Source: Flavobacteriia bacterium
GTDB lineage: Bacteria; Bacteroidota; Bacteroidia; Flavobacteriales_D; Crocinitomicaceae
Assembly (NCBI GenBank): GCA_947455255.1
Contig: CANGOA010000029.1
Coordinates: forward strand, 1 to 27,082
Length of the DNA stretch: 27,082 nucleotides
Reading direction: 5' to 3'
Part shown: positions 9,798 to 25,136 of the stretch, piece after piece
Layout: each line of letters begins with the position of its first letter
How positions within the stretch are numbered: the first letter of the stretch is position 1
Notes under the pieces: generated by a model
Databases searched by the model: none
What the model saw: only the letters and a program-made list of their open reading frames with translations
Told to the model about the DNA's origin: nothing
Program-made: the position numbers and the translations under genes

Positions 9798-12095
9798 TTA
9801 TTCCCCTACCTCCAAACTTGCGCGATACAATTTCAACTCATCCCACGTAAACGCTTCACCAACTTTTTCTTTTAAAGGAGTAAGTGAAAGTTCTGAATAC
9901 CCTTCAAAAATATCTGCTAATTCTGAAATACGATCCGAAGTCATTACCTCATCCAATTGCAACTCACCCATTTTAATTAATTTCACAAAGTGAGAAACAA
10001 TGGTTCCTTCAGACATTACACGACTAGCAGCAATTTCAGAAAGTGACTTATTTTCACGAATTAACTCTAAAGTCACTTCATAGGTAGACTTTTTAGGTTC
10101 TTTTGAAGCTTTAGATTTTGTTCCTTTTTTCACTGAAACTTTCTCTTCTTCTTCTTCGAAAATATCGTCAAGGAATGAAGTTGGTGTTTGTAATTGTTCC
10201 AGTTTTAGTTGATCTAAAATATTTTTTCTGTAATTTAAAATTTCAGGCTTCCAGATTTTATCTTTTGTGATTTCTTCTCCTTTCAAAAGCATTTCCAACA
10301 TATTTCCAGCACGAAGCAAGGAAGTCAAAATCTCAAATTGCGCGGTTTCTAATTCTTCTAACTCTTCGTAGTATGCCTTGATTTTCTTGATACGTTTAAC
10401 CTCTTCCATTTTCTTCAACGTACTAATCGCACAGTTTTCCAACGTTTTAAAGAAATAAGCGTTCGCAGCAGTAACACGTTCAGAAATAAATTGTAAAGAA
10501 ATTGGTCGTGTAGAAAATAGTTTAGTTAGTTGACCAATAAATTTCTGTGCAGGTTCCACCATGGAATGAAAAACACTCGCTTGATGAGCAGCCCAGGATT
10601 TATGTTTTCCTTTTTCACTTTTTGAACCCAATAAAGCATAACTCGAATCATGAATGCGCCACATCGCGTCAACATCGCGCCACTCAAAAGATTTAGCTAA
10701 AAAGGTATATACAAAATGGATGGTGTCTTCTTCCAAGAATTTCTCAAGAACTTGTTCTTCTGGTTTGCTCGCCGTGTAACTCATAACCTGTTGGTCATTA
10801 CTCAAACCATTCATCTGCATCGGTGAAAGTAATACGAGACCATTTAAACTTCTCAAACGAGAAAGTGCAACATAGGCTTGTCCAGGAGCAAAAACTTGGG
10901 AAACATCCAAAATGGCCTTTTCAAATGTTAAACCTTGACTTTTATGAACCGTTATCGCCCAAGCTAATTTCAAAGGATAATGTACAAAGGTCCCTAATAC
11001 CTCTTCTTTTATTTCTTTGGTACCCTCATCGAGGGTATAACGAATATTTTGCCATTCATACTTTTCGACTTCAATGGTTTTCTTTTCTTCTGGGAAATGA
11101 ACTAAAATTTCTTGGGAGGAAATCTCTTTCACCACCCCCATTTTACCATTGTAATAGTTTTTTTCAAAAGACAAATCGTTTTTAACGAACATGACTTGTG
11201 CACCGATTTTCAATTCCAAGACCTCATCAAGTGGATACATGTGAACTGGAAATTCACCCGTAATTTCAGCAGAATATTTACGTGAATCTCCTTTTAATTC
11301 ATGAAGTGATTGTAAATTTATGGCATCCGCTTTAGCGTTATGCGTAGTAAGTGTGATATACCCCGGATTGTTTTTTACATCAAAATTAGGATGAACGTAA
11401 TCATTTAAGACCTTGATATCTGTCTCGTCAATTTGATTATTTCTAAGGTGGTTTAACAAGTGAATAAACCGCTCATCATCTTGACGATAGATTTTTGTAA
11501 GTTCAATAAATAACGGAGGATTTTCTTGAACAACTTTTGCATGAAAAAAGAAAATTCCGTTGTAATAATTTTTCAGTTCTGCCCATTCTACATTTTTGAC
11601 TACAGGAGGAAGTTGTAATAAATCACCAATAAACAATACTTGAACACCACCAAAAGGTTCATTGCGTTTTCTTATTGATCTTAACGTCCAATCGATAGCA
11701 TCCAATAAATCAGCGCGCAACATACTCACCTCATCAATTACGAGTAATTCCATGGATTGAAATAGTGCTTTACGTTTTGCTGGAATCCGAAAATGTTTGA
11801 CTAGGGTATCTTTCGTTTCCCATTTGACACGATCGTTAAATTTGGGAGTTACACCAAATTCTGGTATAAATCCAGAAAAAGGTAATTGAAAAAAGGAATG
11901 GATAGTTACTCCACCCGCATTCAATGCAGCAATTCCAGTAGGAGCAACAATGACCGCTTTTTTATGTGTTGTGGTAATGATTCGTTTCAGTAGAGTGGTT
12001 TTACCTGTACCAGCTTTTCCGGTTAAAAAAATAGATCGATTTGTTTGATTAATAAAGCGAATTGCTAATTCAGAAGTTGAAGTTGTTTCGAGCAT
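9798..12095 (-). CDS. PIF1/RecD-family (SF1B) DNA helicase with C-terminal helix-turn-helix domain
   Basis: Walker A LTGKAGTGKTTLL; Walker B-like LLVIDEVSM; helicase motif ITVHKSQGLTFE; C-terminal HTH-like segment (LSEIAASRVMSEGTIVSHFVKLIKMGELQLDE). Confidence 0.8.
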   Translation of the reverse strand: MLETTSTSELAIRFINQTNRSIFLTGKAGTGKTTLLKRIITTTHKKAVIVAPTGIAALNAGGVTIHSFFQLPFSGFIPEFGVTPKFNDRVKWETKDTLVKHFRIPAKRKALFQSMELLVIDEVSMLRADLLDAIDWTLRSIRKRNEPFGGVQVLFIGDLLQLPPVVKNVEWAELKNYYNGIFFFHAKVVQENPPLFIELTKIYRQDDERFIHLLNHLRNNQIDETDIKVLNDYVHPNFDVKNNPGYITLTTHNAKADAINLQSLHELKGDSRKYSAEITGEFPVHMYPLDEVLELKIGAQVMFVKNDLSFEKNYYNGKMGVVKEISSQEILVHFPEEKKTIEVEKYEWQNIRYTLDEGTKEIKEEVLGTFVHYPLKLAWAITVHKSQGLTFEKAILDVSQVFAPGQAYVALSRLRSLNGLVLLSPMQMNGLSNDQQVMSYTASKPEEQVLEKFLEEDTIHFVYTFLAKSFEWRDVDAMWRIHDSSYALLGSKSEKGKHKSWAAHQASVFHSMVEPAQKFIGQLTKLFSTRPISLQFISERVTAANAYFFKTLENCAISTLKKMEEVKRIKKIKAYYEELEELETAQFEILTSLLRAGNMLEMLLKGEEITKDKIWKPEILNYRKNILDQLKLEQLQTPTSFLDDIFEEEEEKVSVKKGTKSKASKEPKKSTYEVTLELIRENKSLSEIAASRVMSEGTIVSHFVKLIKMGELQLDEVMTSDRISELADIFEGYSELSLTPLKEKVGEAFTWDELKLYRASLEVGE

Positions 12096-12223
12096 TGTAT
12101 GTTAATTTTTACTTGAAGTTAGGAATAAATATCAGAATAGTGCTTATTAACAACGTAGTAATTAAATATTAAACCTAACATTATTGTATATTTATATCCT
12201 TATAAATTTAATTGACTTTTAAA

Positions 12224-14179
12224 ATGGGTGAAATTTTACAACATTATTGGTGGATAGGTGTAATTGTATTAGCTATCGTATTTTACAAATTTGTTTTGCG
12301 TGTATTCTTTGGAATGGTCATAGTTCCTGAAGACAAAGTTGGACTAGTAACAAAAAAGTTTGTTCTTTTTGGTGAAAATAAAGAATTACCTGATGGAAGA
12401 ATTATTGCAACTTTAGGCGAAGCAGGTTTTCAAGCTAAAACATTAGCACCTGGATTGTATTTTTGGAAATGGATTTGGCAATTTGAAATCACCATGGGAA
12501 ATTTTACAATTATCCCTGAAGGACAAATTGGATTAGTACTTGCTAAAGATGGTTCTGAAATTCCAACAGGTAATATTTTAGGTCGTGCTGTTGACTGTGA
12601 TAATTTTCAAGATGCTGAGAAATTTATTACTAATGGTGGTCAAAAAGGACGTCAAACTAGTTATATCACCTCTGGTTCATACCGTATCAACACCTTGCTT
12701 TTTCAAGTATCTGTAACAAATATGATACGTATTCAAGAAAGTATGGTTGGTATCGTTACTACATTGGATGGACAACCAATTGATGCAGGGAATATAGCAG
12801 GTAAATTAGTCGATGGGCACAACAATTTCCAAGATTTTGATAAATTTATTTCCAATGGAGGTAATCGTGGTTTGCAACCTCAAGTTATCCTAGCAGGTTC
12901 TTATAACTTAAATCCTTGGGCAATACAATTGGAAGAAACACCAATGACTGAGATTCCAATTGGATATGTAGGTGTTGTGATTTCCTATATTGGTCAAGAA
13001 GGAAAAGATTTAACTGGTGCTGAATTCAAACATGGAAACATAGTAGAAAAAGGATATAAAGGTGTTTGGTCTGAACCATTAGGACCTGGTAAATATCCGA
13101 TCAACAAATACATCATGAAAGTTGAATTGGTACCAACAACCAATTTGGTATTAAACTGGGCAAGTGCACGAAGTGAAGCGCATAATTTAGACAAAAACCT
13201 ATCAACAATTACAGTACGTTCTAAAGATGGTTTCCCATTTAACTTAGATGTTTCCCAAATTATTCACTTACCGACGACAGAAGCACCAAAAGTGATTGCA
13301 CGTTTTGGGAATATGAATAATCTTGTTTCTCAGGTACTCGAACCAACAATTGGTAACTACTTCCGAAATTCAGCACAAGATAGTGATGTCATTGCATTTT
13401 TGAGTACACGTAAAGAAAGACAGGATTCTGCGAAATTCCACATCAAAAAAGTATTAGATGAATACAATGTTAACGCTGTTGACACTTTAATTGGTGATAT
13501 TACTCCACCAGAATCATTGATGAAAACCCTAACAGATCGTAAGATTGCCGAAGAACAAAAAGTAACTTACGATACGCAAAAACAAGCACAAGAAACGCGT
13601 CAAGGAATGGAAAAAGAAACTGCCATTGCCGATATGCAAAAAGACATCGTTACCGCGCAACAAAGTGTAGAAATTGCAGAACGAACAGCGAGCGCAGCAG
13701 TCAAAAAATCAGAAGGAGAAGCTGCAAGTGTAAAATTAGCAGTAAGTGCTGAAGCAGAAGCAACAAAATTAAGAGCTCAAGCAGAAGCTGTAGCTACAAA
13801 AGCACGCGCAGAAGCGGAGTCATCTGCTGTAAAATTGAGAGCTGAAGCAGAGGCAGAACGTATTTCATTAACAGGTAAAGCAGAAGCAGAAAAAATCCTT
13901 GCTGTTGGTAAATCTACAGCAGAAGCATACGAATTAAGTGTTAAAGCGCTTGGTAATGAAAACTTTACCCGTTATAAAATCACCGAAGAATTAGCAAAAG
14001 GAAATGTTAAATTAATTCCAGATGTATTAATCGGTGGTGGTGCTTCAGGAAACGGATCAGCGTTGGATGGATTACTAGGACTTAAATTAATGGAACTTAT
14101 GGATCCAGAAAAGAAAGAAGGTAAGAGTATACAGAATAAACCTATTCAACGAGAAAAACCGAAAGACACCGAAAAATAA
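12224..14179 (+). CDS. Flotillin / SPFH (band-7) family membrane protein
   Basis: N-terminal TM (WWIGVIVLAIVFYKFVL), SPFH core, and a C-terminal A/E-rich coiled coil (AEAEA..KLRAQAEAVATKARAEAE...) typical of bacterial flotillins. The track's 12212 start is a TTG; the ATG at 12224 (MGEIL...) is more likely. Confidence 0.8.
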   Translation: MGEILQHYWWIGVIVLAIVFYKFVLRVFFGMVIVPEDKVGLVTKKFVLFGENKELPDGRIIATLGEAGFQAKTLAPGLYFWKWIWQFEITMGNFTIIPEGQIGLVLAKDGSEIPTGNILGRAVDCDNFQDAEKFITNGGQKGRQTSYITSGSYRINTLLFQVSVTNMIRIQESMVGIVTTLDGQPIDAGNIAGKLVDGHNNFQDFDKFISNGGNRGLQPQVILAGSYNLNPWAIQLEETPMTEIPIGYVGVVISYIGQEGKDLTGAEFKHGNIVEKGYKGVWSEPLGPGKYPINKYIMKVELVPTTNLVLNWASARSEAHNLDKNLSTITVRSKDGFPFNLDVSQIIHLPTTEAPKVIARFGNMNNLVSQVLEPTIGNYFRNSAQDSDVIAFLSTRKERQDSAKFHIKKVLDEYNVNAVDTLIGDITPPESLMKTLTDRKIAEEQKVTYDTQKQAQETRQGMEKETAIADMQKDIVTAQQSVEIAERTASAAVKKSEGEAASVKLAVSAEAEATKLRAQAEAVATKARAEAESSAVKLRAEAEAERISLTGKAEAEKILAVGKSTAEAYELSVKALGNENFTRYKITEELAKGNVKLIPDVLIGGGASGNGSALDGLLGLKLMELMDPEKKEGKSIQNKPIQREKPKDTEK

Positions 14180-14267: not shown

Positions 14268-15473
14268 ATGACCGAAAAACTCCGATTTTTGAATTATTTC
14301 ATGCATCCTTCGCTCAAGGCGGGTACTCCTTTGTATGAGAAAACAAAAATTACGGTGTTGGTTTTTATTACCGTACTTTCTATCATTTCGGTGTACGGTT
14401 TTTTTTATGTCACGCAAGGTTATTTATGGGATATCAAAGCGTTACATAATTACCTTGGTATTAGCATCGTTGCATTTGGTTTAGTGCTTATAAAAAAAAC
14501 AGGAAAAACCGATTTAGCCCTGACCATTGGGTCGATTATGGGTATCTATTTGGTTTCTGCAAGTGTCTATTTATCAGGAGGTATACATTCTCATGATTTG
14601 TTGTGGTACATGGTACTCTCTGTAGCAGGATTCATGTTTATCAATATTCGTTCGGGGATAATTTTAACCTTACTTTCTTTAGTTGGAATCACGTTCTTTT
14701 ATATTTTATTTACCTATAAAATTCACGAATTTAGTACGGATGATTTTACCTCATCGATTACGTATAAATACTTTAATTTCTGCTTGATTTTATCCATTCT
14801 TGCTCTACTTATTTACATACTAGTTCGTGGAAATTTAACCTTACAAGAGCTGGTACAACTGACCAAAGAGCAAAAAATCAGGGAAGAGATTGCACGCGAT
14901 TTTCATGATCAAATTGGAAATAAATTGGCTTCCATTATGCACCTTTCAGAATTAATGCAAATGAAAAAGTCGTACGATGAAAAAGACCTTATAGGTTCTA
15001 AAATTGATCACCACGCCAAAGATGTATACGATAATTTCCGTGATTTTATCTGGGCGCTGGATGCTAAAAGTGATTTATTGGAAGAGTTGTTTATGTACTT
15101 GCGTGATTTCACAGAAGATTACTTCAAATTTTCGGACATCAATTTATTTATTACCTCATCTCCTGATCAGTTACCTTACTTAGTTTTACCTTCTAATTAT
15201 AGTAAGGAAATCGTACCGATGTGTAAAGAGATTATTACTAACATCAGTAAGCATGCAAAAGCAAGGAATGTCACGCTCGATTTTACGCTCGAATCCAATT
15301 TTCTAATTATCACCATCAAAGACGATGGGGTTGGGATGGAGAAACAAGGTTCGCGTTCTGGAAACGGATTGAAAAACATCGAAAAACGAGCACTTGCAAC
15401 TGGAGGGGAATTGATTGTCAATACGGAATTGAATCTAGGCACTGAAGTGATTTACAAAGTATTACTACCCTAG
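14268..15473 (+). CDS. Sensor histidine kinase, HisKA_3 (NarX/DesK/LiaS-type) with a 5-6 TM N-terminal sensor domain
   Basis: H-box REEIARDFHDQIGNKLASI matches the HisKA_3 consensus (R.RIAR.LHD..GQ.L). HATPase_c G-boxes present (ITIKDDGVGM...GNGLKNIEKRALATGGEL). Multiple TM helices in the first 190 aa. Confidence 0.8.
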   Translation: MTEKLRFLNYFMHPSLKAGTPLYEKTKITVLVFITVLSIISVYGFFYVTQGYLWDIKALHNYLGISIVAFGLVLIKKTGKTDLALTIGSIMGIYLVSASVYLSGGIHSHDLLWYMVLSVAGFMFINIRSGIILTLLSLVGITFFYILFTYKIHEFSTDDFTSSITYKYFNFCLILSILALLIYILVRGNLTLQELVQLTKEQKIREEIARDFHDQIGNKLASIMHLSELMQMKKSYDEKDLIGSKIDHHAKDVYDNFRDFIWALDAKSDLLEELFMYLRDFTEDYFKFSDINLFITSSPDQLPYLVLPSNYSKEIVPMCKEIITNISKHAKARNVTLDFTLESNFLIITIKDDGVGMEKQGSRSGNGLKNIEKRALATGGELIVNTELNLGTEVIYKVLLP

Positions 15474-15490
15474 TTGGGTAGGTTTTTTTT
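15465..15490 (+). terminator. Short hairpin CTACCC-TAGTT-GGGTAG followed by T9, overlapping the kinase stop codon. Possible attenuator or partial terminator between kinase and response regulator.
   Basis: 6-bp stem plus T-run seen in the sequence; weak stem, so low confidence. Confidence 0.35.
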
Positions 15491-15514
15491 GTTTACAATG
15501 TCTATCTTTGTTAT

Positions 15515-16147
15515 ATGGAAGACTTAACTACACAACGCGTTATTATCATTGAAGACAACGAAGATGTCAATGCTATTTTGGGAGAATACATCAAAAGTAG
15601 TGACAAGTTATTTTTAGTAGAATCGTACAAAAATTGCGAGGATGCACTGAAAAATATCGGTGAAGATAAGCCGCGCATTGTGTTGATGGATATCGATTTA
15701 CCAGGAATGAATGGAATCGAAGGAACCAAAAAAATCAAACAAATGAGTCCTACGACCGATGTCATCATCATTACTGTTTTTGAAAATAGTGAAAACGTGT
15801 TCTCAGCCTTATGTGCTGGCGCTTCCGGTTATTTGACAAAAAACATCAAGTGTGAGGAATTACTGTCTTCCATCGAGGAAAGTTTGGTAGGAGGTGCTCC
15901 GATGAGCATGAAAATCGCAAAAATGGTGGTTGGATCGTTTATGAAAAGTACAAAGTCACCTTTAACAGAGAGAGAAACTGAAATTTTAACGCTTTTATCG
16001 ACCGGCAAGAGTTACAATACCATTGCTTCCTTGATACATATTTCTAAGGATACGGTGAAGTATCACATTAAAAATATCTATATCAAATTACAAGTGGATA
16101 GTAAAGAAGCCGCGATTGAAGTAGCGAATAAGGAGCGGTTTATTTAA
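15515..16147 (+). CDS. Response regulator, NarL/FixJ (LuxR-type HTH) family
   Basis: REC domain (VIIIEDNEDV...VLMDIDLPGMNGIEG...) with an acidic pocket; C-terminal LuxR HTH (LTERETEILTLLSTGKSYNTIASLIHISKDTVKYHIKNIYIKLQV). Confidence 0.9.
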   Translation: MEDLTTQRVIIIEDNEDVNAILGEYIKSSDKLFLVESYKNCEDALKNIGEDKPRIVLMDIDLPGMNGIEGTKKIKQMSPTTDVIIITVFENSENVFSALCAGASGYLTKNIKCEELLSSIEESLVGGAPMSMKIAKMVVGSFMKSTKSPLTERETEILTLLSTGKSYNTIASLIHISKDTVKYHIKNIYIKLQVDSKEAAIEVANKERFI

Positions 16148-16954: not shown

Positions 16955-17224
16955 CTAACCGTTTTCTATAAAGTCATAGATGAAATCATTGATTTGTTCA
17001 CTTTCTTCATCTAGTTTTAAAATAATTCTGGAAGCTAATTTTTCTATCCATTTATCAATTTCAGTAAAGGAATCTAAACTATTCAAAAATTGTAAACGTT
17101 CATTTTGGCTGTTAAATTCTTCGAAAAATAAAATAATATTGCCTCTGAAATCGTCATAATAATTTCCTTCCGTTTTATTCAGACTGTTTTCAAAGTATGT
17201 GATTTTTTCGGCATAGGTTGGCAT
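16955..17224 (-). CDS. Small acidic hypothetical protein (89 aa) downstream of the SMC/ABC-like ATPase gene
   Basis: ORF with a strongly acidic composition (DDFRG..FFEEF..ERLQFLNSLDSFTEIDKW..LDEESEQINDFIYDFIENG). Same strand, 88 bp downstream of the ATPase gene; start codon immediately preceded by a C8 run. Confidence 0.45.
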   Translation of the reverse strand: MPTYAEKITYFENSLNKTEGNYYDDFRGNIILFFEEFNSQNERLQFLNSLDSFTEIDKWIEKLASRIILKLDEESEQINDFIYDFIENG

Positions 17225-17232
17225 GGGGGGGG
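17225..17232. repeat. Homopolymeric G8 (C8 on the coding strand), immediately 5' of the ATG of the 89-aa ORF
   Basis: catGGGGGGGGagg read at 17222-17235; G/C homopolymers of 8 or more are rare in this AT-rich sequence. Confidence 0.6.
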
Positions 17233-17312
17233 AGGTAGATTTTGTTGAAGTTAACAGCTATAGCATCACCTGTTTTTAACCTGATGAAAGATTAGTTGAT
17301 ATCTAAAGTTTT

Positions 17313-19013
17313 TTATATTCTGAATAGTTTGTCGTTTTGAGTTAACGATAAAACTTCAAATTCACTTATGTCAATATTTGAAGGTATTTTATCCCTTAAA
17401 ATTGGAACAATATATTGTCCATTTATACTATTAGCAACTTCTACGATTGTATTTAATTGGTTGTCGTGAATGGTTTCTAATTGGTCATGCATAATAAAAT
17501 GTAAGCACTCTATGTCTAATTTGTCTGAAAATTCAATATAAGCAAAATCAAAGGCAGCTATTTGTCCTTTTTTCTTTCCCGTACTTGGATTTCCTTCCAG
17601 ATTTGTTACGATTAGTTCGTATCCTTTTTCATTTTTTTGAGAACTTAATAAGTAGGTTTCGCCATAAAGTCTGTTTGACATTACAGAGAAATATTTATTG
17701 AATTCAGTTATTCTATTTTGTATTTGGCTATCTTTTGATGAAATACCTTGATTAATAGCATCCAAATTTTTATCAATTTCAGCTAGTTTATCTAGTGAAT
17801 ATAGCCAAAGCCTTTTCTGCTCTTCTAAATTTCCTTTTCGCTCAAATTGCTTGTTTAGCTCTAAAATAGTTTTTTCGAAATCTTCTACTAATGCAGATTT
17901 GTTTAACCTTTCTGTTAAAGCATCCTCTTTCGTTCTAAGAACAATAATATCTGATTTTATTTTTCGGATTTGTTGCTCTATTTCAGGAAGTTCTTTTGTA
18001 ATATATTCTAATTTTTCAGAAATTAAATCATTATGAAACTTTACAGTATCTTCAAAAGAAACTTGAATATTTGATATCAAAGATTTTGCTTTTTCATAAA
18101 GAGATTTGATTTGACTAGTATCAATTTGAGTGTACTCTTGCTCTAAATCTTCTTTACTTTCGTTTATTAAATCTTTACGAATTTCTAGTCTACTTAATTC
18201 TGTTGCACTTCTGTTTAACTTAGATTTAATTTCATTCAGTTTGTCGACATCTATAGCATAGTTTTCATTGAGATTAAATTTATTTTTTCTTTGATTTAAT
18301 TCATCAATTTTTTCATTCAAAAGAATTAATTGTTGCTCTATCAAAGAAAGCTCTCCCTCTTTTTTTAATCTTTTTTGGAAATTTTCTTCTCTAGTTTTTT
18401 CTTTTGATAATAATTCCTTTTGATTGTGACTATCGGTAGCTACTCCAAGCCAAAATAAAAACAATGCTTCATACTCTTCAGGTCTCGTAGTACTATGTAA
18501 TAATTTGACAATATTTGCCATCTTATTTTTTTCATCTCTAATATTTTTAGAGATAATTTGCCGACATGTTGGTTTTTCAACATCCGAATTGAAAATTTCC
18601 TTTTTTAAAGCCTTGTCAAATTCTTTATTATCAGTAAAGTTTTTTCCGTTTAATTCTTGTAATTTTTTATTTCGAGCTAGAAAATTCTTCCTAATAGTTA
18701 CTCGATGTTTTTCAATCCCTTCTAAAGTATTAACTAAAACAACAGTAATAATTATTTCATTGTCTTTTAAAAAATTTTCAATTTTTGTATTCGGTTGGTT
18801 TCTAAATTCAGTGTCTTGATAAATATTTTTCCCATCTGCACCAAAACAATAATCTACTAGTCTTAAAACAGTTGTTTTACCTACATTATTGCCCGTGTCC
18901 TGTTGAGAACTACCAACATTAGTTTCATCTACAATTAAATTTATTCCCTTATGAAAGTGAATATCTCTAATTACAGAGTTTTTATTTTGTATGATAACTT
19001 GCTTTAAAAACAT
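17313..19013 (-). CDS. SMC/ABC-type ATPase with long coiled-coil insertion (LmuB-like / ABC-3C ATPase candidate)
   Basis: N-terminal ABC-like head (FLKQVIIQN...IRDIHFHKGINLIVDE...GNNVGKTTVLRLVDYCFG, Walker A GxxxGKT). About 300 aa of heptad-rich K/E/L/Q coiled coil. C-terminal head segment with signature-like STGKKKGQIAAFDFAYIEF and Walker-B-like LHFIMHDQ. Confidence 0.65.
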   Translation of the reverse strand: MFLKQVIIQNKNSVIRDIHFHKGINLIVDETNVGSSQQDTGNNVGKTTVLRLVDYCFGADGKNIYQDTEFRNQPNTKIENFLKDNEIIITVVLVNTLEGIEKHRVTIRKNFLARNKKLQELNGKNFTDNKEFDKALKKEIFNSDVEKPTCRQIISKNIRDEKNKMANIVKLLHSTTRPEEYEALFLFWLGVATDSHNQKELLSKEKTREENFQKRLKKEGELSLIEQQLILLNEKIDELNQRKNKFNLNENYAIDVDKLNEIKSKLNRSATELSRLEIRKDLINESKEDLEQEYTQIDTSQIKSLYEKAKSLISNIQVSFEDTVKFHNDLISEKLEYITKELPEIEQQIRKIKSDIIVLRTKEDALTERLNKSALVEDFEKTILELNKQFERKGNLEEQKRLWLYSLDKLAEIDKNLDAINQGISSKDSQIQNRITEFNKYFSVMSNRLYGETYLLSSQKNEKGYELIVTNLEGNPSTGKKKGQIAAFDFAYIEFSDKLDIECLHFIMHDQLETIHDNQLNTIVEVANSINGQYIVPILRDKIPSNIDISEFEVLSLTQNDKLFRI

Positions 19014-19237
19014 TTTATAATCAATCCTTTATTACCTTTTTTAATAACTCCTAAAATAAATAGCCAATCTAAAACTAACGAATATAAATTCAATGATATT
19101 TTATTGAATTTGTTTACTGAAATAAATAAATCAAAATAGTCAATTTCATTTTTAGTAAATGAATCGAGAACCTCAATTACATTAGCTCCCAAGTAATATA
19201 AATCTCTTTCTGGATTTATGTTTTTATTTACGATCAT
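19004..19237 (-). CDS. Small (77 aa) predicted alpha-helical protein; middle component (LmuC/DdmB-like) candidate
   Basis: ORF overlaps the upstream gene by 4 bp (ATGA) and the downstream ATPase gene by 10 bp, so it is translationally coupled; no recognisable enzymatic motif. Confidence 0.45.
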   Translation of the reverse strand: MIVNKNINPERDLYYLGANVIEVLDSFTKNEIDYFDLFISVNKFNKISLNLYSLVLDWLFILGVIKKGNKGLIIKCF

Positions 19238-20064
19238 AATTTTGGCGGCTCTTCTAAAATATTACAACGCATAAATGCGTCAACCATTATGATCAGTAAT
19301 CCAATTTTAATAGCTTCAATTGGTAAATCTGTAATAGGATTACTTGAGTTTTCTATAATTTTCCAAAGTTCATTTTCAACATTCTCTATTATAATATCTG
19401 CATTTGCTCTTATCCCTTCAAAATCTTTGTGCTTTCCTTTTTCTTTAAGATAAATTGTTTTAATATTTTGAAGTACAAATTCTTTTTTAGTTGAGCCTTG
19501 TTTCTCAATTTCCTCGTAAATTTTATTTAATTTCCCTTGATAAATAGCGTATTCTTCAATTACTGGCTTGAATAGAATAACATTATTGTGTGAAATTTTA
19601 TCTGTTGTATCAGGTGCATTAGTTGGGTCTTCTGTATTAGAATGATCAAATATTCGATTTCCTACAAACCCAACAATAATATTTAAAGCAGATGGATGTT
19701 TTACAAGAATAATACTTCCCGATATTAATTTAAGAATTTTGGCTTCGTGTTCTGTCTTCCATTTTTTAAGAAGAGAGACAGGAAACCTAGTTTCATTTTC
19801 TTTATTATCAATTATTGTATGATGTTCATCACAAAGTAAAATTAAATTACTAAAATCTCTTCTTTCATCATCAGTCATGTTCTCATTCCATCTTGGACCA
19901 TTTTTACTTGCTGCTTCAATGTGACAGATTTTACTTATAATAGATTGCCCATCTTCAGCAATAAGATTTTTTTCACAAGACGGTTCTGCACATTGATTAC
20001 CAGACAACTTATCAAGTCGTCTGATTGTGCTAGGTTTATATTGTCTTGCTTTATCGTTTGCCAT
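19234..20064 (-). CDS. HNH-nuclease domain protein (effector candidate, LmuA-like position) with a C-terminal domain of about 190 aa of unknown function
   Basis: HNH zinc-finger/catalytic motif near the N-terminus: C-x4-C (CAEPSC) ... CHIEAASKNG ... N (WNEN / SNLILL) ... C-DEHH (LLCDEHHTII). Confidence 0.6.
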   Translation of the reverse strand: MANDKARQYKPSTIRRLDKLSGNQCAEPSCEKNLIAEDGQSIISKICHIEAASKNGPRWNENMTDDERRDFSNLILLCDEHHTIIDNKENETRFPVSLLKKWKTEHEAKILKLISGSIILVKHPSALNIIVGFVGNRIFDHSNTEDPTNAPDTTDKISHNNVILFKPVIEEYAIYQGKLNKIYEEIEKQGSTKKEFVLQNIKTIYLKEKGKHKDFEGIRANADIIIENVENELWKIIENSSNPITDLPIEAIKIGLLIIMVDAFMRCNILEEPPKL

Positions 20065-20081
20065 TTTTATTTTTACATTAT

Positions 20082-20093
20082 TGTAAATTTACA
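20082..20093. promoter_or_regulatory. Perfect 12-bp palindrome TGTAAATTTACA, 18-29 bp upstream of the HNH-gene start codon; possible operator
   Basis: Read directly from the sequence; lies in the core promoter region of the three-gene operon. Confidence 0.3.
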
Positions 20094-20290
20094 TTTTTTT
20101 GAATAAAATCAAGCTTAAAAACGCGGTTTTATTACAAATTTTCAATGTTACACAACTGTTTTATAAAAGAAATTAGTTTGTGATTTTAAAGACGAAAATC
20201 TGTCTATAATTACTAAACTTGATACTAGACTATAGTTTTATTTATTCATTCAGCCTTCAATTTCAAGTCGATAATATAATAAGTATTTAG

Positions 20291-22324
20291 TTATTCTTTA
20301 ATAATCTTATAATTTTGTTGTAGAAAATCTCCTATTTTTAAAACATAAATGCCGTTTGAAACATTTTTTAAACTTAATATGAATTGCTCACAGTTGATTA
20401 TTCCTGAAACGATTTCTTGCCCTTTATTATTAAGAAGTTTATACGGTTTATTTATAAAATTCTGGTTCGTTTCGATAGTAATTATGTCTGTGGTTGGATT
20501 TGGGTAGATTTCTAAATCTGAAAAAATCACTTCATTTATTGAAGAAATTTGATTTGATTTTGTAGTAAAATCCCACACTGTAGACCACTGACCCCATGTT
20601 TTACCATTAGATGCTCTAACTTTCCAAAAATATTTTTTTGAAGGCAAGAGAGTTGTTTTGTAAAATGTATCTATTGTAATTTGATTCTGAGGATTTCCTG
20701 TGAAATATTGATTAGTATCAATAATAACTTCATAAGTTACAGCACCAATATTATTAGACCAATTAAATGATAAAAGTGAATAATCAACATTGATTGAATT
20801 GTTCGATGGATTTAATAAATTAAAATTTTCTAATGAATATACAGTAATGTTGATAGTATCAGAATATATGCAATGATTAGAGTCTATTATTGACAATTTA
20901 ATATTATTATTTCCAATGTTGTTAATTTTGCCTTTAAAAGTTGTTTGATAGTTATTAAATATGTCGTTTGACCAAGAGTATGACTTCATTTTTAGAGGGC
21001 CAGATAAAATTACTGAATCACCCACATAAATTGTAAGGTCCTTACCCAATGAAAAAACTGGCGGATTGGTAACACGTATATCACAAAGTGATAGTGCCCA
21101 AAGACCGTCATTATTGTTACCGTAAGCTCCAAAATACAGTAAATTATCATATATCACATAACTATTGTCGGTACCATTTAAACCAATTCCACTATTAATT
21201 CCTGGTGATAAATCATTAATTAAGAATGGATTTAAAGATGAAATTGATTGTAAATTATCGTAACACCATAATTCTCGTCCATTTGTTCCATTATCAGCAT
21301 TAAAAATTAATTTGTTACCAAAAACGTTTAAATTGCTTGGAATAGAGAAATTATTTCCACTATAAATATCCAAAGCTAAAACAGGAGAGTTTTCTCCATC
21401 ATATTTCCATAATTCAGTTCCAAACTGATTTTCATGAGCTGAAAAAAACAATGTATCATTTAATATTGTTTTAAAAGTTACAAGTCCTCCATATGGCGAT
21501 GAATCAATATCGTAAACTTTTTTTGGTGTTGAAACACCATCGTAAACCCATAATTCTGAACCTGTCCCATCATTTGCGCTAAAGTACAATTTGTTTTTAA
21601 ATTGAATAAAATCATTTGGTTTTGAGCCATTGGAAGTAGCAGAAGAATTATTATTAAGATTAATATCCAATAATATTTTAGGGTTAGATGCAGAAGTAGG
21701 GAGAGACTTGTCATAAATCCATAGTTCATCTCCTGTTGTTGAATTATTTGTAGCAGCAAAAATCATTTTATTCTGAAAAACAAATGGTTTAAAGAAATTT
21801 GAAGTTTTAATTGGATTAATTGATTGATTTACCAATTGTTTTGGATTTACAGTACTTAGGGTAGATTTATCATCATATTCCCAAATTGTTCGATTAGAAT
21901 TTGATGAAATTTCAAAATACAATTTATTATCATAAACAGAAAGCCCATTAGCACGTTGACAGATATACTTTGGATTATTTTTTGAAATCGGTTGATTGTC
22001 TGAGTATGAATATAATGCATTATTATTAGTGAAAAATAGTTTCCCATTATATTCAATGTATTGTCTTGGAAAAGTACTATTCGATGAACTATCTAAATCA
22101 ATTAATAATTTTGGATTACTAGAAGAAACTGGTAATTTATTATCGTAAACCCACATTTCATTTCCACTGATTGAAGTTGAAGCTGAAAAATATAGCTTTT
22201 CATTAAAAAGATATAAGTTTCTAGGGTAATTTCCTCCTAAACTATGAATTAGAATTGGGCTTCCTTGTTGACCGAAAATCTTTATCGAATGAAATATTAA
22301 AAAATATAAAATAAATTTCCTCAT
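20291..22324 (-). CDS. T9SS-secreted protein with ELWxxDGT-type repeats, an FN3-like segment and a C-terminal T9SS sorting domain
   Basis: Signal peptide (MRKFILYFLIFHSIKIFGQQ). Six or more repeats of the ...G.ELW.YD... type (GNEMWVYDNKL, DELWIYDKSL, GSELWVYDGVS, GTELWKYDGEN, GRELWCYDNLQ). C-terminus EIYPNPTTDIITIE...YKLLNNKGQEIVSG...NGIYVLKIG matches the Por/T9SS CTD pattern. Confidence 0.8.
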   Translation of the reverse strand: MRKFILYFLIFHSIKIFGQQGSPILIHSLGGNYPRNLYLFNEKLYFSASTSISGNEMWVYDNKLPVSSSNPKLLIDLDSSSNSTFPRQYIEYNGKLFFTNNNALYSYSDNQPISKNNPKYICQRANGLSVYDNKLYFEISSNSNRTIWEYDDKSTLSTVNPKQLVNQSINPIKTSNFFKPFVFQNKMIFAATNNSTTGDELWIYDKSLPTSASNPKILLDINLNNNSSATSNGSKPNDFIQFKNKLYFSANDGTGSELWVYDGVSTPKKVYDIDSSPYGGLVTFKTILNDTLFFSAHENQFGTELWKYDGENSPVLALDIYSGNNFSIPSNLNVFGNKLIFNADNGTNGRELWCYDNLQSISSLNPFLINDLSPGINSGIGLNGTDNSYVIYDNLLYFGAYGNNNDGLWALSLCDIRVTNPPVFSLGKDLTIYVGDSVILSGPLKMKSYSWSNDIFNNYQTTFKGKINNIGNNNIKLSIIDSNHCIYSDTINITVYSLENFNLLNPSNNSINVDYSLLSFNWSNNIGAVTYEVIIDTNQYFTGNPQNQITIDTFYKTTLLPSKKYFWKVRASNGKTWGQWSTVWDFTTKSNQISSINEVIFSDLEIYPNPTTDIITIETNQNFINKPYKLLNNKGQEIVSGIINCEQFILSLKNVSNGIYVLKIGDFLQQNYKIIKE

Positions 22325-22780: not shown

Positions 22781-23884
22781 TTATTTAAATCGAATTTGAA
22801 GATTAAGTTTAAAAAATAATTCTTTATTTTCTTCATATATCTCTCCAAATCCATGTCTTGAACTACTTGCAGTTTCAAGCTTCGTGTTTGCTAGTAAATA
22901 ATTTTCAAATTCGTTTTTGTTATAGATGTGATAACATAAAATTTCCCCATCAGCTTTAACAATTAAATAACCTCCAGTTGCATCGTATTCTCCTGTCCAC
23001 ACCTTTGAGGGCATCATTCCCAGAGCAATGTCTGTTAAAAAGCGTTTTATTTTGTAATTATAAAATAAATGGTTGTCAGTTGTATCAAACTTTAATGGAT
23101 TCTCTTCCTCTGTTAATTTTACTAATTCTTCAATGTTAGAATGAGAAGACGAGTAAAAATTCAACACAATGTTAGACAATATTTGAGGTAATAAACTGTC
23201 GATTAAAATTAGGTTGTTACTGAAAATGGTTCGTTGAGTTTTTACAAAAGATAATTTAGCCTCTTTTTCATTGATAACTTTAATTCTACCTTTAATATCC
23301 CTAGATAATTTTTCGCCTCTTTTTACGAAAAGTGAGTTTATCGTTTTAATGTCTATATCAGAAAATGAATGGTTTTCTATTTTATAAATAAAATTTGTTG
23401 TTTCTCCCGCATTTAATAGAGTAGAAGGATTTCCTAATTGAGATTTAATACTAAAACCTAACGATGGTTGCAGTCCTGTTCTTTGGTCATGAACTACAAT
23501 GGTAATGTCCGTTTTTGCAGAAGAACTTGCTTTCAATGAAAGACAATTTATACTTTGCATAAATTCTTCAATTTTAGGAATTGAAAATGTACCTGAATTA
23601 CTTTTGATTTCGTCTAACAAGTATTTTGCTCTTTCTTGAAATTCTGAAATAAGAATACGAAAAACTTCTTTATTGCCCGAAATTATTACAATATCGTCCT
23701 CAATTGAATATTCAAAATTCCCATTAACTTCGGAACGAAGTATTCTTAAAATTGGATAAACAAGATTTTCAAGTTTCTTTATTTCGCTATTTCCAGGATG
23801 TAATTCTTTGTCTCCTAAAAGTTTAAATAACGCATAAATTTCGCTCCATTCTCCTTTATTTCCTTTTATCATTTTTAATTCCAA
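22781..23884 (-). CDS. Putative Type II restriction endonuclease (cognate of the adjacent C5-MTase); specificity unknown
   Basis: 367-aa ORF directly downstream of, and overlapping by 29 bp, a DNA cytosine-5 methyltransferase gene on the same strand; no housekeeping-family motifs. The call rests on genomic context. Confidence 0.5.
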   Translation of the reverse strand: MELKMIKGNKGEWSEIYALFKLLGDKELHPGNSEIKKLENLVYPILRILRSEVNGNFEYSIEDDIVIISGNKEVFRILISEFQERAKYLLDEIKSNSGTFSIPKIEEFMQSINCLSLKASSSAKTDITIVVHDQRTGLQPSLGFSIKSQLGNPSTLLNAGETTNFIYKIENHSFSDIDIKTINSLFVKRGEKLSRDIKGRIKVINEKEAKLSFVKTQRTIFSNNLILIDSLLPQILSNIVLNFYSSSHSNIEELVKLTEEENPLKFDTTDNHLFYNYKIKRFLTDIALGMMPSKVWTGEYDATGGYLIVKADGEILCYHIYNKNEFENYLLANTKLETASSSRHGFGEIYEENKELFFKLNLQIRFK

Positions 23885-25136
23885 TTAATTTTAAAATCTC
23901 ATTTGCAGTCGCTTGTATTGCAGGAACAGCAACAGAGTTGCCGAATTGTTTATAAGCGGATGCGTCAGCTACTGGAATTAAAAATTCGTTTGGAAAACCT
24001 TGCAATCTTGCCCATTCTCGTGGAGTCATTTTTCGGATACCTTCACGATTTACAGTTCCTTTGATGTGTGTTGTTGGTGTAAAATCCGTAATTCTATGGT
24101 CTAAAACCAAATTTCTTTCTCTACCCATACCACCAACAACTATTGCGTTGCTGATACCGTTATCTGGAATTATTGCGTATCCAAAACCATTTCCTTTTCC
24201 TTCGTGTCGTGCTTTGTGATTAATTAAAGTTTGAACATATTGAGTGGAAAGAAAATATTTTGTTGGAGGAACTTCTTTTTCTTTGATATCTGAAAAAGCA
24301 ACTTTTTTATTTATTGGTTTAGGATATTCAAAATGTTCAATTCCTAAATCATTTCTAAAACCAACAATGTAAATTCTTTCTCGATTTTGAGGAACACCAA
24401 AATCTTTTGCATTAATAATTTGAGGTTCGGGAACGAAGTAACCTAAATCATTTCTCAATACATTTAATATTGTTGCTAATGTTTTTCCACCGTTATGATT
24501 TCTTAACCCTTTTACATTTTCTAAAAATATTGCTTTTGGTTTTTTACGTTTGATGATCTCTGCAACATCAAAAAACAATGTCCCACGAGTATCTTCAAAT
24601 CCTCCACGTTTTCCAGCAATTGAAAATGCTTGACATGGAAAACCTGCACAAAGTAACTCGAATCCGTCAGGAATAAACGCTTTTGTTTCTTCCTTTGTGA
24701 TGTCGCCAAAAGGTCGTTCTCCAAAATTTGCTTTGTAAGTACGTTTTGCTTCTTTATCCCATTCACTTGTAAAAACACATTTCCCTCCCAAATTTTGCAT
24801 CGCTAAACGGAAACCACCAATTCCTGCAAATAAATCTATGAACTTAAATTTTGGATTTTCTAAAGGAGGAAAAGGGATATCAAAAGTGTCAAATATTCCA
24901 TATTGTAAAGCCTCTTCAGCTACGACATTTGTTATCTCTTCTTCAGGATATTTATATGCTAAAATTTCTTTAGTGTATTTGATAGCATCTTTTCTATAAA
25001 ATTGTGAAACACCATTCTTGTTGTTATGCAAAAAGTGAGTAATAATCGCTTCTTTGTTGTTTTCAGGTTCAACGAGTTTGGTTTTGTATTCTTTTTCAAA
25101 TACTTTTTCCAGCGATATTTTCTCTTTTTGTTTCAT
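23856..25136 (-). CDS. DNA (cytosine-5)-methyltransferase, Type II R-M modification subunit
   Basis: Motif I FIDLFAGIGGFRLA; motif IV catalytic GFPCQAFSIAGKRGG; motif VI ENVKGL; motif VIII QNRERIYIVGF; motif X GNSVAVP. About 95-aa N-terminal extension before motif I. Confidence 0.9.
   Translation of the reverse strand: MKQKEKISLEKVFEKEYKTKLVEPENNKEAIITHFLHNNKNGVSQFYRKDAIKYTKEILAYKYPEEEITNVVAEEALQYGIFDTFDIPFPPLENPKFKFIDLFAGIGGFRLAMQNLGGKCVFTSEWDKEAKRTYKANFGERPFGDITKEETKAFIPDGFELLCAGFPCQAFSIAGKRGGFEDTRGTLFFDVAEIIKRKKPKAIFLENVKGLRNHNGGKTLATILNVLRNDLGYFVPEPQIINAKDFGVPQNRERIYIVGFRNDLGIEHFEYPKPINKKVAFSDIKEKEVPPTKYFLSTQYVQTLINHKARHEGKGNGFGYAIIPDNGISNAIVVGGMGRERNLVLDHRITDFTPTTHIKGTVNREGIRKMTPREWARLQGFPNEFLIPVADASAYKQFGNSVAVPAIQATANEILKLIGIKNDKRK

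Follow-up and report, generated by a model that had tools for sequence, protein, structure and literature searches.

ABC-three-component (ABC-3C) systems were reportedly defined in 2020 by Krishnan, Burroughs, Iyer and Aravind. Their hallmarks are an ATPase split by a coiled coil, a recognised middle component (MC) encoded between the effector and ATPase genes, an effector composed of a head and a family-specific C-terminal domain (CTD), and a conserved operon. Reviews and a 2025 survey place ABC-3C within the Lamassu superfamily, HNH and SMEK effectors included. HNH is among the N-terminal domains of LmuA in a 2023 review (PMC10586767), and Haudiquet et al. (2025; PMC12663957) restrict HNH, SMEK and Lipase effectors to short Lamassu, their HNH subtype probably corresponding to the DUF2326/MC6/CTD10 clade. 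A Gln following the Walker B Asp is a general feature of LmuB and is tied in the literature to slow ATP hydrolysis. The closest short Lamassu systems are the DdmABC/LmuABC system of Vibrio cholerae (PDB 9NY5, 9NYG, 9NXX) and LmuACB of Salmonella (9HQU, 9HQX).

The locus described here is an ordinary member of this known family, with a subtype and an ATPase motif that have already been catalogued. Within the window, that is, the whole 27,082-nucleotide stretch of DNA that was analysed, three ORFs on the minus strand encode proteins of 276 aa (19234..20064), 77 aa (19004..19237) and 566 aa (17313..19013). The effector gene overlaps the small gene by 4 bp (19234-19237), and the small gene overlaps the ATPase gene by 10 bp (19004-19013), as expected from the translationally coupled trio reported in the first-pass annotation. 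All three proteins pass the curated Pfam thresholds (PF20275, PF20293 and PF10088), each hallmark of ABC-3C is present, and we detected no difference from ABC-3C in components, gene order or effector architecture. Pfam, PADLOC and fold matches agree with the earlier reading of the trio as an operon of effector, small protein and SMC-like ATPase of the Lamassu/ABC-3C kind. Very probably it is a self-contained, horizontally mobile cassette of type II (“short”) Lamassu/ABC-3C, in which LmuA (HNH plus CTD10), LmuC (MC6) and LmuB (DUF2326, with Asp-Gln) would work by a release-and-oligomerise mechanism.

The LmuA-like effector consists, on the basis of Pfam, PADLOC and an AlphaFold2 model (pLDDT 82), of a Cap5-like HNH domain, a helical linker and CTD10. 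The N-terminal HNH motif noted previously is present and conserved among homologues: its catalytic and zinc-binding core (C25, C30, H48, N73, C78, H81 and H82; 19819..19992, minus strand) reads in translation C25-x4-C30 ... C47-H-I-E-A ... N73 ... C78-D-E-H81-H82, and its residues are invariant or nearly so in alignments of 19 and 95 effector homologues. A profile match to an HNH family was duly found, but it is weak (HNH_2), and the Pfam match above threshold is CTD10 (PF20275, 43.7 bits, cut-off 28.1, aa 144-271). This domain (19252..19635, minus strand), presumably the docking and oligomerisation domain, has a highly conserved C-terminal VDAFMRCNILEEP motif. In PADLOC, the effector matches PDC-M68A (5.8e-34) as well as the CBASS SAVED-HNH/Cap5-type effector models (1e-22), with similarity to Cap5 confined to roughly the first 110-140 residues. 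Effector heads vary among the closest systems. The V. cholerae and Salmonella short Lamassu systems have a Cap4 nuclease head where the present effector has a Cap5-like HNH, and the ABC-3C locus of Clostridium botulinum plasmid pCLJ (NC_012654.1 83081-86008), which has the same CTD10/MC6/DUF2326 backbone and 39% ATPase identity, carries SMEK_N. YydB of Bacillus subtilis has a different head, of the phosphoesterase type.

The LmuC-like middle component (19004..19237, minus strand) is recognised by Pfam as ABC-3C MC6 (PF20293, 46.6 bits, cut-off 27.2, aa 4-76). A 77-aa homologue sits between the effector and ATPase genes in all related loci, and no PADLOC-DB v2 model matched this 77-aa component. 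The same database files the effector and ATPase pair, through adjacent matches to M68A and M68B, as the bioinformatic candidate PDC-M68 and not under Lamassu; our literature search found no paper on PDC-M68. Relatives are annotated at NCBI as “ABC-three component system protein” and “middle component 6”. The earlier suggestion that an HNH variant had not been catalogued is refuted by these names, by the Pfam CTD10 and MC6 models, by PDC-M68 and by the published HNH listings.

The third gene (17313..19013, minus strand) encodes an LmuB-like ABC ATPase of the SMC/Rad50 type, assigned to the DUF2326/YydD family from Pfam, PADLOC, AlphaFold2 and Foldseek. The predicted match to DUF2326 (PF10088) was obtained at 69 bits, and PADLOC scores PDC-M68B (2.5e-43, 146.6 bits) above LmuB PDLC03859 (E 7.3e-11, a weak 40 bits, but near full length at aa 1-474). 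Translation confirms the nucleotide-binding motifs that had been read from the sequence. The Walker A motif GNNVGKTT (aa 41-48; 18870..18893, minus strand) has G41, N42, G45, K46 and T47 invariant in 128 sequences. Towards the C-terminus, the ABC signature-like STGKKKGQ (aa 477-484; 17562..17585, minus strand) has T478, G479, K481, K482 and Q484 invariant in the ATPase homologue alignment, and the variant Walker B HFIMHDQ (aa 505-511; 17481..17501, minus strand), with Gln for the catalytic Glu, has D510, Q511, E513 and H516 invariant in 20 and 128 homologues. Such conservation among the homologues of both ATPase and effector means that these motifs are not chance matches. That the Gln marks a slow-hydrolysing switch is a reasonable reading, but it is not peculiar to this locus, having been published for the family.

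The AlphaFold2 model of the ATPase (pLDDT 77) shows an SMC-like head whose coiled coil folds back, as had been anticipated. The antiparallel insert spans aa 194-450 (17664..18434, minus strand), with helices at 194-219, 222-245, 250-295, 299-312, 320-371 and 374-450, and splits the beta-rich halves of the head; at about 257 aa it is shorter than the roughly 300 aa first estimated. The full translation contains no CxxC zinc hook, its only cysteines being at positions 56, 150 and 503, so LmuB dimerisation may differ from that in the Salmonella complex. Foldseek searches with the model retrieved YydD as the best match (9a6c_A, 5e-21, 17% identity), together with SMC heads, LmuB (9hqx_B, 1.5e-10) and Rad50; YydD belongs to the same DUF2326 family, in the B. 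subtilis YydB-YydC-YydD system (integrative model 9A6C). LmuB scores no better than cohesin or SMC heads, so the fold is not specific evidence for LmuB as opposed to other SMC-like ATPases. When PDB sequences were searched with a profile of the ATPase, only spurious coiled-coil matches came up and LmuB was not reached, and sequence similarity of the solved LmuB and LmuA to this locus lies below HMMER detection. The link of the ATPase to solved structures is one of fold comparison only, through a predicted model.

The resemblance to short Lamassu comprises the LmuA-LmuC-LmuB operon, an LmuB of about 570 aa whose Walker A is canonical and whose Walker B reads Asp-Gln, and a head of the SMC/Rad50 type from which the coiled coil folds back; the effector C-terminal domain is modestly similar in structure to that of LmuA. 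Where a short-Lamassu LmuB is recognised by a length of about 600 aa, a Walker A of the form Gx4GK[ST] and a Walker B of the form hhhhD[Q/S/T/E], the present protein has 566 aa, GNNVGKTT and FIMHDQ. The middle component, at 77 aa, is much smaller than in the V. cholerae and Salmonella systems. This small size, the missing zinc hook, the better scores of PDC-M68A/B over LmuB, the PDB sequence search without an LmuB match and the modest similarity of CTD10 to the C-terminal domain of LmuA would all suit a relative of Lamassu among the ABC-3C systems that has a mechanism of its own, sensing something other than DNA ends or becoming active without release and oligomerisation. We regard this as unlikely: the reviews and the 2025 survey put ABC-3C with HNH and SMEK effectors inside the Lamassu superfamily, the Asp-Gln Walker B, the short LmuB length and the gene order are all shared, and the zinc hook is likewise missing from the V. 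cholerae clade, having been lost in a validated system.

Assuming that the cassette is a short Lamassu, we infer its mode of action by analogy with Cap5 and with those Lamassu complexes of the Cap4 type whose structures have been solved. Two LmuB protomers would fold back their coiled coils and, with LmuC, grip the effector C-terminal domain, so that the nuclease stays an inactive monomer. The LmuB heads would bind ATP, hydrolysing it slowly because of the Asp-Gln motif, as has been proposed, and would engage foreign DNA ends or the replication intermediates of phages or plasmids. Such engagement may free the effector, which could then oligomerise via its C-terminal region and so pair its HNH domains, as in activated Cap5 tetramers, leading to indiscriminate cutting of DNA. 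The infected cell would die or stall, as in abortive infection, or the plasmid would be lost. The activity of Cap5 is subject to cyclic-nucleotide regulation, whereas an SMC-like ATPase complex is the proposed regulator here.

The three genes are strictly conserved as an operon. Wherever the contig extends far enough, all 38 related genome loci have the trio in the same order, most of them with the 4-bp overlap, and the order recurs in more distant metagenome relatives; conservation of the trio, which the first-pass annotation had left to be checked, is confirmed. None of the flanking genes in the window is co-conserved with the trio. DNA homology ends on one side at the ATPase stop codon and on the other at the effector gene or a short way upstream of it. 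ATPase identity reaches 84-91% between different Bacteroidota orders, which indicates recent horizontal transfer of the cassette, as judged from sequence comparison. More distant relatives are found in Desulfobacterota, Spirochaetota and plasmids of Clostridia; a search of the phage collection gave no homologue. The flanks of related loci hold varied defence genes, among them type I and IV restriction, PARIS AriA, DpdF and an NB-ARC gene with an integrase.

In the clade relative on pCLJ, SMEK_N+CTD10 replaces HNH+CTD10, an exchange that exemplifies the effector modularity by which Lamassu/ABC-3C is defined, and relatives sharing the effector C-terminal domain either have SMEK as the head or lack a head altogether. 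The HNH domain itself comes in two “alleles” whose distribution does not follow that of the rest of the cassette, the identities of HNH and CTD being 45% and 79% in locus L001, and 67% and 42% in L031. Repeated swapping of the nuclease head by recombination exactly at the HNH/linker boundary, within a clade that would form an experimentally untouched branch of Lamassu, is a tentative extension of these patterns to which we give a rather low probability.

Upstream of the effector gene lies a leader and putative promoter region (20065..20149, minus strand), delimited by blastn homology: similarity to loci L003, L006, L011 and L035 reaches window positions 20098-20149 and ends there, so that in some relatives the leader travels with the cassette, as far as aligned sequence can tell. 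Its promoter role is conjectural; a scan for sigma-70-type promoters gave matches below shuffle expectation and is uninformative for 20065..20149. The terminator scan returned a single terminator-like match, inside the effector gene, no convincing direct or inverted repeats flank the cassette, and no tRNA genes were found in the window. Since neither tRNA genes, repeats, a promoter nor an external terminator gave a signal, these searches provide no evidence on the integration mechanism or the transcript boundaries. A downstream 89-aa ORF (16955-17224) was considered as a fourth component and rejected; it has no family match and is not conserved beside the trio. Both neighbours that had been placed within about 3 kb were located, namely a surface protein carrying a T9SS sorting domain (20291-22324) and an HpaII-type restriction enzyme and C5 methyltransferase pair (22781-25136) lying 2.7 kb from the cassette.

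The distribution of the trio also bears on whether it serves defence at all. A housekeeping DNA repair module like SbcCD/Rad50-Mre11, or a selfish addiction module without a defence role, would accord with the fold matches to Rad50 and SMC proteins, with the proposal in the literature that Lamassu derived from SbcCD, and with the known toxicity of Lamassu on overexpression. There is, however, no Mre11/SbcD phosphoesterase, and we reject the SbcCD reading on domain content. Patchy distribution, movement between orders with no conserved neighbours, exchange of effector heads between lineages and variable flanks rich in defence genes leave repair or addiction a very improbable account. A Septu-like pairing of an ABC ATPase with an HNH nuclease, or an effector module derived from CBASS Cap5 (SAVED-HNH; 7RWK, 7RWM, 8FMF), to which the HNH domain is closest, is scarcely credible and ruled out by domain content, since PADLOC returned neither PtuA nor PtuB and Septu has two genes against three here, the effector ends in CTD10 and not in the SAVED sensor of Cap5, no cyclase occurs among the neighbouring ORFs, and the ABC-3C-specific middle component, CTD10 and a long coiled-coil insert typical of SMC-like ATPases are all present.

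For a short Lamassu of the HNH type, the literature that we searched yielded no report of experiments on any member, and a search on YydD gave no relevant result. What is gained is mainly a correct annotation, of a small defence cassette beside an HpaII restriction-modification system in a Bacteroidota genome, together with the recognition of the HNH subtype as widespread and highly mobile. The cassette, which measures about 2.8 kb including its upstream region, is a compact candidate for a first experimental test of an HNH-type Lamassu. If the head-swapping proposal is true and reflects selection by phage-encoded nuclease inhibitors or differing target specificities, the clade would offer a natural system for effector exchange on a constant SMC-like sensor, and would show whether activation by release and oligomerisation holds for HNH nucleases as well as for Cap4.

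The trio consists of three minus-strand ORFs, which encode an effector of 276 aa (19234–20064), a middle component of 77 aa (19004–19237) and an ATPase of 566 aa (17313–19013). The effector and 77-aa genes overlap by 4 bp, and the 77-aa and ATPase genes by 10 bp; positions and overlaps are exactly those of the first-pass annotation. The motifs it named are all present on translation. In the ATPase these are a Walker A motif (GNNVGKTT, aa 41–48), a signature-like segment (STGKKKGQ, aa 477–484) and a Walker B motif (HFIMHDQ, aa 505–511), and in the effector the HNH core C25-x4-C30 ... CHIEA ... N73 ... C78-DEHH82. Alignments of 20 locus-derived and 128 database ATPases (45–92% identity) and of 19 and 95 effectors show no or almost no variation at the motif residues, and this conservation excludes chance matches, indicating that the motifs are real and functional.

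By curated Pfam thresholds, all three proteins belong to ABC-three-component (ABC-3C) families, and the initial identification of an operon of the Lamassu/ABC-3C kind, with effector, small protein and SMC-like ATPase, was correct. The Pfam search proposed for the ATPase and effector found DUF2326 (PF10088, 69 bits) in the former and CTD10 (PF20275, 43.7 bits versus a cut-off of 28.1) at the C-terminus of the latter, while the 77-aa protein falls in the Middle Component 6 family (MC6, PF20293; 46.6 bits versus 27.2). In PADLOC-DB, effector and ATPase match the candidate system PDC-M68 (5.8e-34 and 2.5e-43, respectively); the ATPase has a weaker, near full-length match to the LmuB model (7.3e-11), and models of CBASS SAVED-HNH (Cap5-type) effectors and of HNH-bearing SduA match the N-terminus of the effector. 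A search of the trio against NCBIfam added nothing specific.

An AlphaFold2 model of the ATPase (alignment of 128 sequences, mean pLDDT 77) consists of an N-terminal head half rich in beta strands and a C-terminal head half, separated by long helices at 194–450. In Foldseek searches of the PDB, it matches the archetypal DUF2326 protein, Bacillus subtilis YydD (9a6c_A, 5e-21), heads of SMC and cohesin proteins (about 2e-11), LmuB of a Salmonella Lamassu (9hqx_B, 1.5e-10; also 9hqu), a type I LmuAB–DNA complex (9ux7_A) and Rad50, none of which was reached by a sequence-profile search of the PDB. Together, model and matches confirm the split ABC/SMC head with a fold-back coiled coil that had been read from the sequence, although Foldseek scores by themselves would not tell LmuB from other SMC-like proteins. 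The translated ATPase lacks a CxxC zinc hook; Lamassu may carry zero, one or two copies (Haudiquet et al., PNAS 2025, PMC12663957), and the hook is likewise absent in the validated Vibrio cholerae clade.

Two features had been singled out, the HNH effector as a possibly undescribed subtype and the Gln in place of the catalytic Glu in Walker B; both are known properties of the family. The review by Liu, Roisne-Hamelin and Gruber (2023, PMC10586767), which places ABC-3C within the Lamassu superfamily, already names an "HNH superfamily nuclease domain" as one of the LmuA heads. Haudiquet et al. (PMC12663957) divide Lamassu into long and short types, the latter with an LmuB of about 600 aa, a Walker B consensus of hhhhD[Q/S/T/E] and HNH, SMEK and Lipase as type-specific heads. 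Li et al. (bioRxiv 2025.03.14.643221) describe the Gln-for-Glu substitution in Walker B for LmuB proteins in general, and measured a turnover of about one ATP per minute with DNA.

As to the trio's conservation, which the first-pass annotation had put forward for checking, a scan of one genome per species yielded 38 loci with ATPase relatives at 45–91% identity. Wherever the contig extends far enough, the ATPase is preceded by genes for an HNH-CTD10 protein and a 77-aa protein, always in this order, and the 4-bp overlap recurs in most loci. The CTD10/MC6/ATPase layout and the HNH motif are also kept in more distant metagenomic relatives, among them a Desulforhopalus MAG and a "Deltaproteobacteria" record. 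Relatives at 20–39% identity occur on plasmids of Clostridium, Priestia, Acinetobacter and others, mostly labelled by NCBI "DUF2326 domain-containing protein" and "ABC-three component system middle component 6"; no homologue turned up among phage records.

DNA homology to relatives starts at the ATPase stop codon (17310–17316) and stops either within the effector gene or no further than about 85 bp upstream of its start codon, so the minimal cassette measures about 2.8 kb. No gene neighbouring the trio in the window was found beside it in the related genome loci, whose flanks hold varied defence genes (type I and type IV restriction enzymes, PARIS AriA, DpdF, PsyrT, HEC-01A). ATPase identities of 84–91% between Chryseobacterium, Flavobacterium, Pedobacter, Arcicella, Runella, Aureispira and Saprospiraceae indicate recent horizontal spread. 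On a JGI metagenome contig (Ga0535650_0000171, 1–8597), a distant HNH-CTD10/MC6/ATPase trio is flanked by a phage-type integrase on one side and an NB-ARC (STAND) NTPase of 904 aa on the other, which looks like a defence-island or mobile-element context.

The surface-protein gene and R-M cassette reported near the operon are indeed there: a secreted protein of 677 aa that ends in a T9SS (Por_Secre_tail) sorting domain (20291–22324, minus strand), 227 bp upstream, and a complete HpaII-type type II pair (22781–25136, minus strand), comprising RE_HpaII (367 aa, 444 bits) and a C5 cytosine methyltransferase (426 aa) whose genes overlap by 29 bp. The secreted protein's T9SS domain speaks for the window coming from a member of the Bacteroidota. 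The window also encodes a PIF1-like helicase that ends in an HTH_40 domain (9798–12095, minus strand), a 655-aa SPFH/Band 7 protein (12212–14179) and a histidine kinase with a LuxR-type response regulator (14268–16147). Directly downstream of the ATPase, an 89-aa minus-strand ORF (16955–17224), its start codon immediately preceded by a nine-C run (17225–17233), has no match in Pfam, PADLOC or NCBIfam and accompanies the trio in none of the related loci. Directly upstream of the effector start codon, an imperfect AT-rich palindrome (20067–20108; 24-nt arms, 71% complementary) falls in a stretch co-conserved with four related loci (L003, L006, L011 and L035); it may act as an operator or promoter element, or may have arisen by chance.

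In solved Cap4-type Lamassu complexes, the LmuA C-terminal domain is sequestered by two LmuB protomers and LmuC; the complexes bind DNA ends, and LmuA is then freed to form tetramers with an active nuclease site. The analysis here establishes the domains, the folds and the conservation of both catalytic residues and operon. By analogy, we propose that two LmuB-like protomers and the LmuC-like protein would sequester the effector C-terminal domain, and that binding of DNA ends would release the effector, which would oligomerize and switch on its Cap5-like HNH nuclease, with abortive infection as the predicted outcome. Oligomerization-activated HNH is plausible because Cap5 is itself active as a tetramer, according to the titles of PDB entries 8FMF and 9DIH.

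The effector is modular. On Clostridium botulinum Ba4 657 plasmid pCLJ (NC_012654.1; L045, 1819–4746), SMEK_N+CTD10 replaces HNH+CTD10 on the same MC6/DUF2326 backbone (ATPase identity 39%); this trio has a TnpB gene and an SPFH-domain gene nearby. That the backbone occurs with HNH as well as SMEK heads agrees well with published accounts of short Lamassu, the clade being matched by description. A Sphaerochaeta MAG (L036, 5388–5777) has a CTD10 protein of only 129 aa without an HNH head beside intact MC6 and ATPase, recalling the headless clade reported for short Lamassu, and in Pedobacter cryotolerans (L003, 4960–5780) a frameshift splits the effector into HNH (109 aa) and CTD (119 aa) ORFs; both are possibly headless or decaying variants.

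In most close relatives, DNA homology (80–87%) runs from the ATPase stop codon to 19772 (effector aa ~97) and then breaks. Identities of the HNH domain (aa 1–97) and of linker plus CTD (aa 98–276) are discordant, at 45/79%, 42/83% and 90/75% in L001, L002 and L035, and 76/55% and 67/42% in L029 and L031. Two HNH alleles, CAEPxC...CDEHH..IIDNKxNE and CAFPxC...CxNHH..ETxD, occur among the 38 loci (L001–L038), and their discordance with the rest of the cassette points to recombination: the domain is mosaic, with the alleles apparently exchanged at the domain boundary. This is the one mildly interesting by-product of an analysis in which the locus itself is an intact and ordinary member, acquired horizontally, of a Lamassu/ABC-3C subtype that had already been catalogued, with a predicted role in defence.
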